Sequence record: NC_103192.1
From: a phage
Length of the DNA stretch: 64,000 nucleotides
Direction: 5' to 3' (one strand)
This document shows, piece by piece, positions 45,250 to 52,027 of this stretch; position 1 is the stretch's first letter; the number at the start of each line of letters is the position of its first letter. The translations under genes were made by a program, and so were the position numbers. The notes below the pieces were generated by a model. It did no database searches. It saw nothing but the letters and a program-made list of their open reading frames with translations, and was not told the DNA's origin.

Positions 45250-45279
45250 ACTATCTCCTTCTCCTTGTCTTGTCCGGTA

Positions 45280-45308
45280 ATAATATCTAAATCTTACCTG
45301 TTTGTCAA
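45280..45308 (-). promoter_or_regulatory. sigma70-like promoter on minus strand (TTGACA-17-TATTAT)
   Basis: Read on minus strand: ttgacaaacaggtaagatttagatattat. Confidence 0.5.
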
Positions 45309-45352
45309 CAACTGTTTTAGATATCTAAGGGTGGAATAACCACCCTTCTGTA

Positions 45353-46702: not shown

Positions 46703-47194
46703 TTAGTCAACCTGAACCCAACCGCCTGCTACCTTTTTAAACATTCTTTGGTTATCACTGCCTCGGAATGGTTTCTTGGTTGGTAAATCTTTTACATACT
46801 TTCCATCAATGACGATATCAGCCAGTTTAAGAACATCACTAGAGATATGCTCAAATGTGAACCCAGTATACACAAGAATAGTTTTCTTGTCACCAAACTT
46901 TTCCTTAATTCTCCTCATAAGGTTGATAATATCTGGCTCATTATAAGTAGCCAAAGGCTCTCCACCAAGTAAAGAAATACCGCATACAGATTCATTGTCT
47001 AAATCCAACAAAATTTTCTGCAAATCTTCTTCGGTGAACTCTCTTCCTTTATCTTTTGACCAAAATGCTTGATTAAAGCAACCAGGACAAGCGTGTGGGC
47101 ACCCAGATACCCACAAAGCTGTCCTAATACCTGGCCCCTCGGTGTAAGATATCTCTGTATACCCGACAATATTCATACATACTCCGCATCGCAT
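46703..47194 (-). CDS. nrdG: anaerobic ribonucleotide reductase activating protein (radical SAM)
   Basis: Cys cluster CPHACPGC near N-terminus; 163 aa. Confidence 0.8.
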   Translation of the reverse strand: MRCGVCMNIVGYTEISYTEGPGIRTALWVSGCPHACPGCFNQAFWSKDKGREFTEEDLQKILLDLDNESVCGISLLGGEPLATYNEPDIINLMRRIKEKFGDKKTILVYTGFTFEHISSDVLKLADIVIDGKYVKDLPTKKPFRGSDNQRMFKKVAGGWVQVD

Positions 47195-47289
47195 TTAGGA
47201 CAATGCCAAATAAAATCGTCCAGTGCCTTACACCAACGAAGATTGCAATGACAACCACACTTGCAGATTTTATAGATACCCGATGACAT
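47174..47289 (-). CDS. possible small Cys-rich zinc-ribbon peptide (38 aa), not in ORF track
   Basis: AAGGAGG upstream of ATG; CKCGCHC...HCPKC; overlaps nrdG start. Confidence 0.3.
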
Positions 47290-47341
47290 ACTGCACCTCC
47301 TTAGTTAATAGCATATTTAAAATATGCATATCTTTCTACGA

Positions 47342-48277
47342 TCATTTACCGCAGATCTCTTTATACGCTGCTTCCACTATGCTGAACACCTCAGGCCTGT
47401 AGTAGAAGAATTCGGTGCTACCATTAAATTTTACAGGAAAGTTTATTTTACACTTGTTGAAAATCTCGTGCACAGATTTTTCTACACTTAGCATGTTTTT
47501 AGTCGATCCGCTCCATGTTTTCAATATATGTAAATCATGTAGACCCGCGCCAGATGTATGTGCGCTTTTTAATATCTCATCCTTTCTATTATCAACACGG
47601 ACGCTCACACCTATCTTCATGAGTGTAGGCAATTCTAGATCATCAACCATGATGTAAAGTTTACCACAATCGTGGGATAAAAATCCACTTTTGGTGCATT
47701 TAGGACATCCTCTCCCTCCTAAATGCTTGGTAGGGGATTGACAGAAATCTCCATGGTCTGTGCAAACAATTGTAACCTTGATGTGTGAATTCACATACCT
47801 AACTTTAGAGTAATCATACTTGTTCCCGTGGACAGCCACAGCGTCCTGGATAAACTCTTCAGTGGTCTTTTTCATAGATCCGCCACATCCTGGACAGCCG
47901 TGACCACGCTTAAGGCTACCAGGAGTAGCTGACCATTCGTGGTTGCAAACTTTGCAACGACATAATACTTTATTACACCCTGTAGTGATCTCTTCTAATA
48001 TTTCAATATAAGTATTTTTCTTCCCTATGTCCTCAACCCACTTTTCATGAGGTTTGGTTTTACTTTGTGCTATTTTTAGCTTCCTGCATTCAGGACACCC
48101 GCATTTTTGATTTAGATGTATATCAGGTGTTTGGGCAAAGTGGGTGCCGCAGTGCTTACATATTATCTCCACTTTATCTTTACAGGTTTTATAGTCCACA
48201 AGAGAGTAGTCGTATTTATCACCATGTTTCTCTCTAGCCCTCCCTATAAATTCCTCCGTTGTCAGTCGTCTGGTCAC
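47342..48277 (-). CDS. putative free-standing homing endonuclease (repeated Zn-finger modules + GIY-YIG/T5orf172-like C-terminal domain)
   Basis: Two copies of module TEEFI..A...HG.KYDYS.V.Y...C..HG.F...P..HL.G.GCP.C; located between nrdG and nrdD; GTG start with AAGAGGA RBS. Confidence 0.5.
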   Translation of the reverse strand: MTRRLTTEEFIGRAREKHGDKYDYSLVDYKTCKDKVEIICKHCGTHFAQTPDIHLNQKCGCPECRKLKIAQSKTKPHEKWVEDIGKKNTYIEILEEITTGCNKVLCRCKVCNHEWSATPGSLKRGHGCPGCGGSMKKTTEEFIQDAVAVHGNKYDYSKVRYVNSHIKVTIVCTDHGDFCQSPTKHLGGRGCPKCTKSGFLSHDCGKLYIMVDDLELPTLMKIGVSVRVDNRKDEILKSAHTSGAGLHDLHILKTWSGSTKNMLSVEKSVHEIFNKCKINFPVKFNGSTEFFYYRPEVFSIVEAAYKEICGK

Positions 48278-48344
48278 CGCTAAATCCTCTTGGTTGCTAA
48301 TCTATGTACTAAGTGTGCCACATCCTTGTGGCTTTTGTCAAGTA

Positions 48345-49307
48345 TCAGCAACTACAACTTCCATAGTGCTTCACTCGCTCGATAACTTCCGCTTGCTTAC
48401 CTGTGTTATACGGCCTACTGTTCGGGCTGGAGAGATAGCCAGACACTCTTCGGATCACTGAGATATATTGTTCATCGTGGCATCCGCACGCAGGGCAGCA
48501 GAACCCTTTAGCTGTTGCACTGAACTCACCAGAGAAACCACACTTGAGACATTTATCCACAGGTTGGTTAATACCAAAATACATAATATGTTTATACCCG
48601 AAGTCAACAAGAGCCTCTAAAGCATCTAAGTTGTTTTTCAGATTTGGTGTCTCTATGTACCCAATGTTGCCACCAGAGGAGATCATAGCAAAACCTTCCT
48701 CATACTTCCACTTATCAAAAGGTGAGCTATTGATCCATACTGGCTGGTGGAAACTGTTGGTGAGGTATTCATGCTCGTGCTTCAACACTTCAGGATATTC
48801 ACGATCCAGGCAGGTTGCAGCCTTATAGCATAAACTCTCAGAAGGGGTGCCGTACAAGCTAAATGCTAGTCCACTTTCCTTCTTATATCGCTCACAAGCA
48901 TCCTTCATGTGCTGAAGGATTCCAAGAGCTAAAGCCTTGTCACCCTCTCTGCCCAAAATCTGACAGGTTTCATACACACCAATATACCCAATACTGATGG
49001 AAGCGTACCCGTCATAGAAGAGTTTATCGATACTCTCTTCAGGATCCAGGCGAGCAAGAGCTCCTTCACACCACATGATAGGATTCTGCCCGGCCTTGGT
49101 GCCTTTCAGACGGTTAACCCTTACAAGGTGAGATTCATATGCCAAATCCAGATACTCGTCAAGAACGGCAAAGAAATCAACACCTTCCGTCTTAGCTTTT
49201 GCCGCAATCATTGGTAGGTTAAGGCTAACAACACCCAAGTTGAATCTGCCAAGGTATTTCTCCTCGCCTGTTACAGGGTCGCTATATTTCGATAAGAAAC
49301 TTCTACA
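48345..49307 (-). CDS. nrdD: anaerobic ribonucleoside-triphosphate reductase, exon 3
   Basis: Glycyl-radical motif RRVSGYL and C-terminal Zn ribbon CLKCG...CPACG; junction inferred ...SMG|CRSF..., intron ends on G at 49308. Confidence 0.75.
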   Translation of the reverse strand, partial: CRSFLSKYSDPVTGEEKYLGRFNLGVVSLNLPMIAAKAKTEGVDFFAVLDEYLDLAYESHLVRVNRLKGTKAGQNPIMWCEGALARLDPEESIDKLFYDGYASISIGYIGVYETCQILGREGDKALALGILQHMKDACERYKKESGLAFSLYGTPSESLCYKAATCLDREYPEVLKHEHEYLTNSFHQPVWINSSPFDKWKYEEGFAMISSGGNIGYIETPNLKNNLDALEALVDFGYKHIMYFGINQPVDKCLKCGFSGEFSATAKGFCCPACGCHDEQYISVIRRVSGYLSSPNSRPYNTGKQAEVIERVKHYGSCSC

Positions 49308-50069
49308 CATTATGTTCAAGGTGGTTCGCAAGGCCACCCCCGCACCTTTACGTGCTGCTGCATGTCCCCATGCAGATCAGACTATATCTTCACACTTAGT
49401 GTGTCTACCATTTCGAGTGTCATCAGCTTACACCCTACACCGCTACATTCATCACGGTTAGTCGTTAGGCATTTCGTAACAGAACTCGTAATCATAGTTA
49501 TTAGGTGCACCACGTTTCAGGATAGCAGATATTCTTTTTCTATCTATTCCTAAAACATCAGCACAACATCTCAGACTCTTAAAGTGAATAACCACACCAG
49601 TTAATTTGTGGGTGGCTTTCACCCCGTGACATCTTGTGTAAAAAGCATAACAGTTGTTGTCGTATCCTTCTTGAGTATTGTCTGGGCAAGCTCCCCACTC
49701 AAGGTTGTATACGCTGTTATCTTTCCTGTTGTCACCTTTGTGCTTAACATATGGTAAATTGTCTGGATTTGGTAAAAACGCTTCAGCAACAAGTCTGTGA
49801 ACCCTTAGGCAAACAGTCTTTTTGTTCTTGCGTATCCTGACAAGACGGTAACCTGTGTTTATCTCTTCCCACGAATGAATAATTCTTTCATTTTCGTATC
49901 GGGTGCAATAAACATTGCCCATCTCGTCAATTTCATAACCTTCAAAATCACGAATTTGTTTTCTCATTTCAGGACTCCTCTTAGTCAGGAGTTCTGTTAC
50001 GTTTAGCACGGGATTGTCCGTTCTGGAGTTTCCCCGTTTAGATAGATTTTACATGAGCAGTTATAGTTT
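49308..50069 (-). ncRNA. group I intron 2 of nrdD, with HNH ORF between Q-like and R-like elements
   Basis: Exon 2 ends on U (..atg ggt); P-like aaacggggaaac and Q-like caatcccgtgc in 5' part; R-like aacgactaacc and S gaagatatagtc in 3' part; last nt G. Confidence 0.6.
49458..49967 (-). CDS. intron-encoded HNH homing endonuclease
   Basis: VHRLVAEAFLPNP...VKHKGDNRKDNSVYNLEW HNH motif; ATG after AAGAGGAG. Confidence 0.75.
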   Translation of the reverse strand: MRKQIRDFEGYEIDEMGNVYCTRYENERIIHSWEEINTGYRLVRIRKNKKTVCLRVHRLVAEAFLPNPDNLPYVKHKGDNRKDNSVYNLEWGACPDNTQEGYDNNCYAFYTRCHGVKATHKLTGVVIHFKSLRCCADVLGIDRKRISAILKRGAPNNYDYEFCYEMPND

Positions 50070-50378
50070 ACCCATGCTTGTTACTTTGCCGTCTGTTGAA
50101 CCTGTCACTTTTCTATTTAGCGGTACAGATACGAAGTCGGGATAAATCCGCTCTGCAGAGCATTCCAGAGCCAACCGTTTCAAATCATAGTTAGGATCCC
50201 CAGGATTCATGTTGACACCCTCTTCTAGGAAGAACAGCACTTTAGGGAACACAGGTGTGATACGTTCTTCACCAAGACCCATTTTGTGGACTTTCAAGTA
50301 ATTTTTGGTAATCATTCTACCAAAGACCGAGGTATCCAGTCCTAAACTTAATGTGATGAATGGAGTCTGCTGTCTCCT
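50070..50378 (-). CDS. nrdD: anaerobic ribonucleoside-triphosphate reductase, exon 2 (5' boundary approximate)
   Basis: In-frame region with no start codon; ...SLGLDTSVFGRMITKNYL..GLGEERITPVFP...EEGVNMNPGDPNYDL matches what I recall of NrdD internal conserved region. Confidence 0.55.
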
Positions 50379-51175
50379 CCCTGTGTTTCCACAGGGCCAG
50401 ACTATCTCTTACTCTACTTCAATAAGATAATAACCCTTTATTGTGAGATGCTTACCTTCGGCATTTCCTTCGATAGCCCTATGAACGTTACCTACGTTCA
50501 AATTTAAGGCTTTTGCACAGGCATAGAGTGAAGGATATTCACCAACCAAGGTTTTCCCTTTGTATGCCTGCACTTTCCTATAGCACTTACCTGGACAAAG
50601 TCCTGTTCGGAAAGCATGTCTCTTATTATCTTCCGGCAAAACCCACTCTAGGTTAGACGGATGATCATTCAATGTATTGCCATCTTTATGATTCACTTCC
50701 CAGTTTTCAGGGTCTTCTGGGACATCTGGCAAACAATACAAGGCAACAACCCTTGAGGTTTGGATTCGAATCTTTTTACCTTTGTGGTTGAAAGAGTACA
50801 TATAACGGCGTTTAACATGCTTGTTACCTTTTCCATAACCTCCCCACAATATTGGGTGTAGCATTCCACGTTTTCCGTATACGTTTCCAACCTCATCAAT
50901 CACATAGTTTGACTCTTCACCATTAAGAATGATCTTTTTCATAGAGCCTCTCCATTTCGAAGTTAGTATTTCAACTAACCCCTACACTACTTGGTTCAGA
51001 AATGTTTGTCAAGCATCTCTGCCTTTCGTTAGTCGTTACAACCGTTCCAACTCCTGTAAGAACTAGTCACGGGATTGGCGTAGCTTTCGCCTTAGCGTTC
51101 CCCGTTAGCCGGATTTACCGACCCCTCTTATGAGGTTAGGAGAGTTTTACAACGGCCAGTTTGTTAACCGTTGAC
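50379..51175 (-). ncRNA. group I intron 1 of nrdD (core in 5' 220 nt, HNH ORF in 3' extension); boundaries +/- about 15 nt
   Basis: P-like ggctaacggggaacgc, Q-like caatcccgtgac, R-like gtaacgactaacgaaagg, S-like ggttagttg upstream of ORF; architecture as I recall for T4 nrdD (sunY) intron. Confidence 0.55.
50409..50942 (-). CDS. intron-encoded HNH homing endonuclease
   Basis: VNHKDGNTLNDHPSNLEWV HNH motif; RBS GGAGAGG. Confidence 0.75.
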   Translation of the reverse strand: MKKIILNGEESNYVIDEVGNVYGKRGMLHPILWGGYGKGNKHVKRRYMYSFNHKGKKIRIQTSRVVALYCLPDVPEDPENWEVNHKDGNTLNDHPSNLEWVLPEDNKRHAFRTGLCPGKCYRKVQAYKGKTLVGEYPSLYACAKALNLNVGNVHRAIEGNAEGKHLTIKGYYLIEVE

Positions 51176-52027
51176 AGAAGTTAACGTATTGATTTGATAG
51201 AGCAAAGTCTGCATGCTGTCAAATACGTCTTTATCTGTCATTTGCATTGCAACAGTCTCAGCATCTGGCAACCAATGTTCCTGGCAAAATTTAAGGTTCT
51301 TCTCATAGGTCGCTTCAGCATACTGTGCCAGATAATGATCAATATGACTCATGGTCTGACCGCCATATTGAGCACTAGCTACTGCACTAGAGATTTGGCT
51401 AAGGATTGTTGTTGCAACCCCTATTGACTTCGGCTTACTGACATGGGCGTTACCAATGTTGAATCCGTTTTCCAACATATCTGGATAATTTACCAAACAA
51501 CAGTTTGTTAACGGACTGATCAAATAGTCAAGATCATGCACATGGATGAAGCCTTTGTTGTGCTCTTCGGAGACACGGTCTGGCAGGATCTGTGTTGATG
51601 CAAGGTGTTTGCTAAGGATGCCTGCAAGCAGGTCACGATGAGTATGCACATGATTAGTAGGCTTATTTGCGTTTTCTTTTGTAAATTCATCACAAGTACG
51701 ATCCAAGAAGCCACTAATATCGGCAAGCAGTTTTCCACCTGCCTCTCTGTTATTATCTCTTGTCTGTCTATACTGGATGTATTCTCTGGCTGCACATTTT
51801 AAACCCATATCCATAAGAGCATCTTCAACAAGGATATGGATATTTTTTACAGAGATCGTGCACTGGTCAGTTGGCAGATTGTTGGCAACAACTTCATTAA
51901 CCGCACAGGCAATCCGGTAAGCTTCTTCTTCAGTATGTCCAGACTCAAGTAAGGCGGACTCTGCCGCCTTGATCACCTTAATTCCGTTATAGACCTCTTC
52001 TCTACCGTCCCGTTTTACAACTTTCAC
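51176..52027 (-). CDS. nrdD: anaerobic ribonucleoside-triphosphate reductase, exon 1 (3' boundary approximate)
   Basis: ATP-cone VVKRDGREE and IHVHDLD region; ORF stop at 51164 lies in intron; GTG start after GGAGAG. Confidence 0.75.

Follow-up and report, generated by a model that had tools for sequence, protein, structure and literature searches.

Homing endonuclease genes of the T5orf172 class nearly always encode at least one zinc finger of the CapR, DUF723 or DUF4379 type, often repeated as "beads on a string" (Barth, Dunham & Seed 2023, PMC10448857). Genes of this class often adjoin ribonucleotide reductase genes and show domain swapping, and nuclease genes sit at the boundaries of genetic exchange (PMC10448857). 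Their frequent position beside ribonucleotide reductase genes (PMC10448857) bears out the tendency on which a preliminary description of the DNA studied here had relied, namely that phage homing endonucleases favour nrd loci. According to the same authors, homing by the zinc-finger members of the class is experimentally unverified (PMC10448857), and vequintaviruses are not mentioned in the main text of their paper. A second line of precedents comes from phage T4, for which PMC2988022, summarising Sandegren et al. 2005, places the HNH gene mobC between nrdG and nrdD, with the GIY-YIG gene segH there instead in some relatives; many of the free-standing T4 endonuclease genes (seg, mob) are promoter-less cassettes (PMC2988022). 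In the literature consulted, the one T5orf172 nuclease with biochemical data is Odn (ICP1 gp88), whose T5orf172 domain cleaves DNA in vitro; the substitution E180A abolishes cleavage (PMC8263062). CapR and Odn further illustrate that such domains get co-opted (PMC8096241, PMC8263062, PMC10448857).

The window analysed here, a stretch of 64,000 nucleotides of phage DNA (NC_103192.1), was assigned by megablast to the genus Vequintavirus, among the E. coli phages of the rV5/FV3 group. On its minus strand it carries the coding sequence of a 311-aa protein at 47342..48277, with a GTG start codon, a stop codon at 47344-47342 and, read from the sequence, a ribosome-binding site AAGAGGA (48285..48291, minus strand) 7 nt 5' of the GTG; the preliminary description had placed the 311-aa frame at these same coordinates. 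Comparison with relatives by blastn and MAFFT delimits a mobile cassette of 1009 bp around it (47307..48315, minus strand), made up of a 38-nt leader, the coding sequence and a 35-nt trailer. The trailer holds an AT-rich palindrome, GCATATTT-T-AAATATGC (47311..47327, minus strand), part of about 20 nt that are common to most occupied genomes and unlike the empty-site sequence. Folding of the 5' leader RNA, in search of a sequestered ribosome-binding site, was not significantly better than that of shuffled sequence (z = -1.7). A tblastn search of the window returned no paralogue of the gene, since a weak match to its 'STEFF' region at 34.3 kb belongs to an unrelated 95-aa ORF.

The protein places three CxxC/H...CxxC modules N-terminal to a T5orf172 domain, the layout of the zinc-finger-array T5orf172 homing endonucleases. 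Module A1 (48086..48262, residues 6-64) is DUF723/CapR-like, has the putative zinc ligands C40, C43, C61 and C64, and is modelled with a pLDDT of about 90. Module B (47885..48052, residues 76-131; putative ligands C108, C111, C128 and C131) is a DUF4379 treble clef, module A2 (47696..47866, residues 138-194) has the putative ligands C172, H175, C191 and C194, and the nuclease domain, of the GIY-YIG superfamily, occupies 47351..47686 (residues 198-309), all on the minus strand. The two copies of a Cys-containing module noticed in the preliminary description are real, A1 and A2 being 51% identical over 59 aa (BLASTP E = 6e-17); the third, divergent module between them had not been separated out, and Pfam recognizes it as a DUF4379 'probable treble-clef zinc finger' at residues 76-131, with 46.1 bits against a threshold of 24.5. 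Sub-threshold Pfam matches were obtained for CapR-homology (19.5 bits, E = 0.0012), DUF723 (15.1 bits) and MUG113.

The C-terminal segment had been likened to GIY-YIG/T5orf172-type nucleases, and Pfam places T5orf172 (PF10544) there above threshold, at residues 215-296 with 27.2 bits against 20. The assignment draws on this score, on a GIY-YIG alpha/beta fold and on conserved motif residues (Tyr, K/Y-I-G, Arg, Glu): the domain contains GKLYI (Y208), MKIGVS (K221, G223), R231, H270 and GSTEFF (E289), which together make up the GIY...YIG...R...E signature in its T5orf172 form. Y208, K221, G223, R231, H270 and E289 are invariant among 34 aligned homologues, as are, or nearly so, most of the putative zinc ligands. 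Motif order suggests that R231 and E289 are equivalent to R27 and E75 of I-TevI and to E180 of Odn. The profile search that had been proposed for T5orf172, GIY-YIG and NUMOD domains thus found the first of these, and neither canonical Pfam GIY-YIG (PF01541) nor NUMOD matched this protein at E <= 0.1. Assignment to a non-nuclease family had been named as the outcome that would speak against a nuclease, and the opposite was obtained, namely T5orf172 together with a match to PHROG 681 'endonuclease' over the whole protein length (6e-62). PF05265 and PF10544 are both precomputed for a 99%-identical NCBI protein (cluster P0001), which is named 'GIY-YIG nuclease family protein'. An NCBIfam search gave no meaningful match, a PDB sequence search found nothing, Foldseek with the full-length model gave no significant match, and a profile search showed no RepA_N domain in the protein. 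A reading as a defence system was set aside, PADLOC having returned only a sub-significant match to PDC-S57 (E = 0.005).

The gene lies within an nrdD/small-ORF/nrdG unit. Upstream is exon 3 of nrdD, encoding the glycyl-radical C-terminus (48345..about 49304-49337, minus strand; Pfam NRDD 1.9e-83 and Gly_radical), and downstream is nrdG, the anaerobic ribonucleotide reductase activase (46703..47176, minus strand; Pfam Fer4_12 1.2e-42). The preliminary description had both flanks right; nrdG, however, does not directly abut the gene, as a conserved Cys-rich ORF of 38 aa (MSSGIYKICKCGCHCNLRWCKALDDFIWHCPKCDAEYV; 47173..47289, minus strand, with a strong ribosome-binding site, AAGGAGG) intervenes and is the first gene after the cassette, so that the place of the homing gene is between nrdD and this small ORF. 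The 38-aa ORF has eight Cys residues and is kept in all 12 genomes compared; an NCBIfam search with it gave no match. Its stop codon overlaps the nrdG start (ATGA overlap), and the two are predicted to be translationally coupled. The small ORF is unannotated in FV3 and labelled 'ribonucleotide reductase' or hypothetical elsewhere. A mechanically called nrdG ORF begins at 47194 (MRCGVCMNIVG...); the start codons of relatives, and the small ORF's stop codon that overlaps it, make the ATG at 47176 (MNIVGYTE..., 157 aa) the probable true start.

Two further insertions interrupt nrdD itself (48345-52027, minus strand), which is split into three exons at 52027-51168, 50370-~50065 and ~49304-48345. 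Each insertion measures about 750-800 nt and contains an HNH_3 / I-HmuI-NUMOD-like ORF (50409-50942 and 49458-50009). As group I introns the two score below the Rfam threshold (27.7 and 32.9 bits, gathering score 50); the NUMOD-like matches of the region belong to these two intron-borne HNH ORFs. The introns vary among phages, with none in inoa, only the first in FV3 and both in C2, and no database phage combines both introns with the T5orf172 cassette. The nrdG region also occurs in very different haplotypes: the rV5-type adds two ORFs, one of 34 aa and one of 78 aa annotated 'putative minor capsid protein', and its nrdG has about 42% nt identity to the FV3 and C2 types in the first 300 nt, with the switch point at the end of the 38-aa ORF.

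Against FV3 and C2, homology ends at 48316 and restarts at 47306, so that 1009 bp replace about 18-22 bp, and by blastn and MAFFT the cassette has no counterpart in FV3, C2, APCEc02 and one IMG/VR relative. It starts 30 nt past the nrdD stop codon, directly after a hairpin (GCCACAAGGATGTGGC, 48317..48332, minus strand) that abuts the left junction and is preceded by TTGACA (48336-48341), and it ends just before the ribosome-binding site of the 38-aa ORF. The empty site reads ...TGA TAC TTGACA AAA GCCACAAGGATGTGGC A/TATTGTTGTCACACAGTAAACT/AGGAGG...ATG up to the start of the 38-aa ORF; its junction in FV3- and C2-type phages is ...TTGACAAAAGCCACAAGGATGTGGCA/TATTGTTGTCACACAGTAAACTAGGAGG..., and the left junction, ending in ...GGATGTGGCA, is identical in six occupied genomes. 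In empty-site genomes the hairpin GCCACAAGGATGTGGC is followed by ATATTGTTGT, and consensus scans of the FV3 site called both a promoter-like element (TTGACA-18-CATATT, 10/12, with an upstream TG) and a terminator-like hairpin with ATATTGTTGT as its T-tail. The insertion point, between GTGGCA and TATT, splits the -10 hexamer and parts the stem from its T-tail, and about 20 nt beside it differ between occupied and empty alleles. An identical 31-nt hairpin/promoter sequence stands at the empty sites of FV3, C2, APCEc02 and the IMG/VR contig. The gene is free-standing in that Rfam group I intron matches occur only inside nrdD and the nrdD and nrdG coding sequences are uninterrupted at the site. 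The comparison of the nrdG-nrdD intergenic region among relatives, as had been suggested at the outset, hence yields a presence/absence polymorphism with base-precise junctions, the genomic pattern that marks free-standing homing endonuclease genes; together with the nuclease domain it substantiates the initial view of the gene as homing-endonuclease-like.

When IMG/VR was scanned for the left-flank hairpin, the only matches were a single additional vequintavirus, whose site is empty, and unrelated contigs that reuse the hairpin. In the latter, the 19-nt hairpin AAGCCACAAGGATGTGGCA recurs exactly and is followed by a T-rich run (L012 7482-7500; L013 4111-4129), with no other flank sequence in common with the locus, and may be a shared terminator module. 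An annotated terminator of phage Murica was considered as the nrdD hairpin and discarded, its coordinates falling in the region of the 38-aa ORF.

A query of both flanks plus the gene matched 119 vequintavirus records, most of them with an empty site; among 60 rows sampled for occupancy, 13 were occupied, and about three quarters of the vequintavirus records have the empty site, with a span of 659 bp or, in the rV5-type background, about 480 bp. When the cassette alone was used as DNA query, related sequence appeared in 27 vequintavirus records, with full-length similarity in Mangalyan only (85% nt, 81.5% aa). A near-identical allele, that of P0001 (99%, with the two substitutions L219F and C276Y), occupies the same site in three other public contigs without nrdD intron 2; at position 276 the window allele has Tyr, as do most homologues. 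Other alleles at the site are CPT_Mangalyan_119 and inoa_68, and existing labels include 'putative homing endonuclease' for WalterGehring bas51_0186 and 'putative GIY-YIG nuclease family protein' for SophiaRose_117. About 26 GenBank records (MG0656xx), named 'Campylobacter phage', UNVERIFIED and unannotated, are vequintaviruses 94-96% identical to the region, and their host label looks doubtful.

Twelve genomes, eight occupied and four empty, were compared in detail. The nuclease domain is common to all alleles and the 3' trailer to all but those of WalterGehring and SophiaRose, at 69-85% nt identity; the finger arrays differ: A-B-A in the window, A-A-B-A in Mangalyan, A-A-B in WalterGehring and inoa/A141, A-B-B-B in ECML-10, A-A-A-A in SophiaRose and A-A-A in phiWec189. 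Seven finger architectures were counted on the one nuclease domain, the mark of modules swapped or lost among alleles. Between the window and Mangalyan alleles the three modules have nucleotide identities of 70%, 93% and 96%, and the window cassette is a mosaic, Mangalyan-like over bases 65-1009 and SophiaRose-like in its leader and first codons. Cassettes of the inoa/A141 type replace the last nrdD codons, giving ...VKHVGNVDCCPLSK before the stop instead of ...VKHYGSCSC (inoa region: L004 2813-3000), and bring a strong intrinsic terminator (GAGAGCAAGGATGCTCTC, then a T-run) as well as a TTGACT-17-TATAGT promoter, both of which the window cassette lacks. Diversification in situ would account for such differing arrays at one site no less well than repeated homing of enzymes with one specificity.

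The contigs that carry the same allele as the window also hold a second T5orf172 zinc-finger gene (L016/L017 6973-7902), which encodes a protein of 309 aa, 35% identical, and lies between phoH and the next ORF. The corresponding site is empty in the window (45250-45352), which therefore represents an endonuclease-free allele for this second element; the 3' half of phoH diverges strongly between the occupied and the empty state.

The nuclease domain is under purifying selection, with dN/dS of 0.10-0.28 in all pairs of eight alleles, and so is the finger region in the comparison of the window with Mangalyan (dN/dS 0.16). Presence of the gene is uncoupled from its surroundings: three downstream haplotype groups (FV3-, C2- and rV5-type, compared over 300 nt past the 38-aa ORF) each have occupied and empty members, and the distance from the cassette to recombination breakpoints is about 100 nt or less. 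In A141 and inoa, essentially one allele (dN 0.007) is followed by two different haplotypes, which switch inside the 3' end of the 38-aa ORF. In the window itself, the nrdD end resembles A141, inoa and C2 (94-96%), the gene resembles that of Mangalyan, and nrdG that of FV3 (97%). This uncoupling would be expected from homing with short co-conversion tracts and does not amount to proof of homing. The window, ECML-10 and phiWec189 share three synonymous changes in the first part of the 38-aa ORF; these were considered as a general immunity signature and rejected, because other carrier genomes lack them.

In our view the gene is likely to be a free-standing homing endonuclease gene of the T5orf172 type, active now or until recently, which resides as a 1-kb cassette without a promoter of its own in the nrdD/small-ORF/nrdG unit. 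A consensus scan called no sigma-70-like promoter between nrdD and the gene in the window, which makes read-through from nrdD the simplest model of expression. The gene could be transcribed in this way because the insertion parts the nrdD hairpin from its T-tail; both the missing promoter and the read-through are predictions from consensus scans. In a mixed infection, the zinc-finger array would bind the nrdD / small-ORF junction where it is still intact in a relative, the T5orf172 domain would cut nearby, and recombinational repair from the carrier genome would copy the cassette and some flanking sequence into the gene-less relative. The carrier genome would be immune to its own nuclease, because the insertion splits the site and the adjacent ~20 nt are replaced. 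Counting against this reading are the missing matches to canonical Pfam GIY-YIG and in NCBIfam, the non-significant outcomes of Foldseek and of leader folding, and the variety of finger arrays at the one site.

I-TevI autorepression and the satellite repressor CapR are regulatory precedents for a protein of this kind. The window protein could accordingly have been domesticated or serve two functions: either its fingers bind the nrdD-nrdG control region and regulate the 38-aa ORF and nrdG, or the nuclease attacks competitors or satellites as Odn does. At the empty site the insertion point lies inside both the promoter-like element with its 10/12 match and upstream TG and the hairpin with T-tail, and the cognate DNA of the protein could therefore be a control region; the weak, sub-threshold CapR-homology match (E = 0.0012) and the co-option of CapR and Odn (PMC8096241, PMC8263062, PMC10448857) point the same way. 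However, about three quarters of the close relatives express nrdG without the gene, and the nuclease domain is intact and selected, unlike the situation in CapR. The protein also lacks any acquired targeting domain such as the RepA_N of Odn, and the PADLOC match is sub-significant (E = 0.005). We therefore consider such a role unlikely.

The homing cycle predicts that an endonuclease gene degenerates after fixation, and the gene might be such a remnant, an ex-homing gene fixed in its lineage that no longer cuts and drifts towards loss. The two differences from the database allele (L219F, C276Y) and the GTG start codon could be taken as early signs of this decay. The ORF is nevertheless full length and keeps all invariant nuclease and zinc-ligand residues, selection acts on the nuclease domain (dN/dS 0.10-0.28) and on the fingers (0.16 against Mangalyan), and the gene is not fixed, because the site is still polymorphic in the population. 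These observations make an inactive remnant quite improbable.

That an ancestral vequintavirus gene was repeatedly deleted, rather than inserted as a mobile element, might explain why related alleles occupy one site in several sub-lineages, but is very improbable given that independent deletions would not regenerate the identical 31-nt sequence at the empty sites of FV3, C2, APCEc02 and the IMG/VR contig, that gene presence is uncoupled from flanking haplotypes and that the cassette is a mosaic between alleles.

On the preferred reading as a homing endonuclease gene, the locus has a modest value as a tractable E. coli-phage test case for homing by zinc-finger T5orf172 enzymes. The gene class, its architecture and its preference for ribonucleotide reductase loci are already published, and near-identical proteins are annotated. 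The assets of the locus are a junction known to the nucleotide and a set of natural alleles in which the same nuclease comes with different finger arrays, with Mangalyan, WalterGehring (BASEL collection) and inoa as culturable donors and FV3 and rV5-type phages as empty-site recipients. A more far-reaching idea, which we put forward tentatively and regard as doubtful, takes the series of seven or more allelic finger arrays on one T5orf172 nuclease for a modular zinc-finger nuclease system of natural origin, whose specificity is set by which modules are present and in what order. If so, alleles would displace one another and track target-site variants in an arms race at one locus, and the control of nrdG would change as well, its promoter/terminator element being rewired by the insertion. 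The two intron-borne HNH genes in nrdD and the cassette add up to three mobile elements in 5 kb of the window, and nrd loci of large phages are therefore unsuited to phylogeny.

Among the known systems, the window gene comes closest to the T5orf172 homing endonucleases of Barth and colleagues, with which it shares ribonucleotide reductase neighbours, presence/absence polymorphism, shuffled fingers and a position at an exchange boundary. Like the ICP1 'tcg' genes gp165 and gp174 and their counterpart in Vibrio phage Helene, it joins N-terminal finger repeats to a C-terminal T5orf172 domain, whereas it differs from the ICP1 genes in lineage, being from an E. coli Vequintavirus, in its insertion site and in sequence, with 29% identity to tcgB over half of the protein. 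With Odn it has in common a catalytic domain of the T5orf172 type in which Arg and Glu are conserved; Odn, in contrast, fuses T5orf172 to RepA_N, and the window protein, which has zinc fingers in that role and no RepA_N match, is not Odn-like. Nor is it a CapR-type repressor, which has a zinc finger without nuclease, because its T5orf172 domain is retained, intact and selected. Compared with I-TevI and the Seg enzymes, the nuclease is C-terminal here and N-terminal in I-TevI, 'KIG' stands in place of 'YIG', and NUMOD/HTH and PF01541 are lacking, so that the protein is related to canonical GIY-YIG homing endonucleases at the superfamily level only. Finally, the T4 genes mobC and segH are likewise free-standing endonuclease genes at the nrdD-nrdG junction that vary among relatives and follow the logic of a promoter-less cassette, but they belong to an unrelated phage family and encode HNH or canonical GIY-YIG enzymes, unlike the T5orf172 domain with zinc fingers found here. 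The site preference that they share with the window gene is convergent, not homologous, and the nrdD-nrdG junction is thus a recurrent landing site on which different endonuclease genes have converged.
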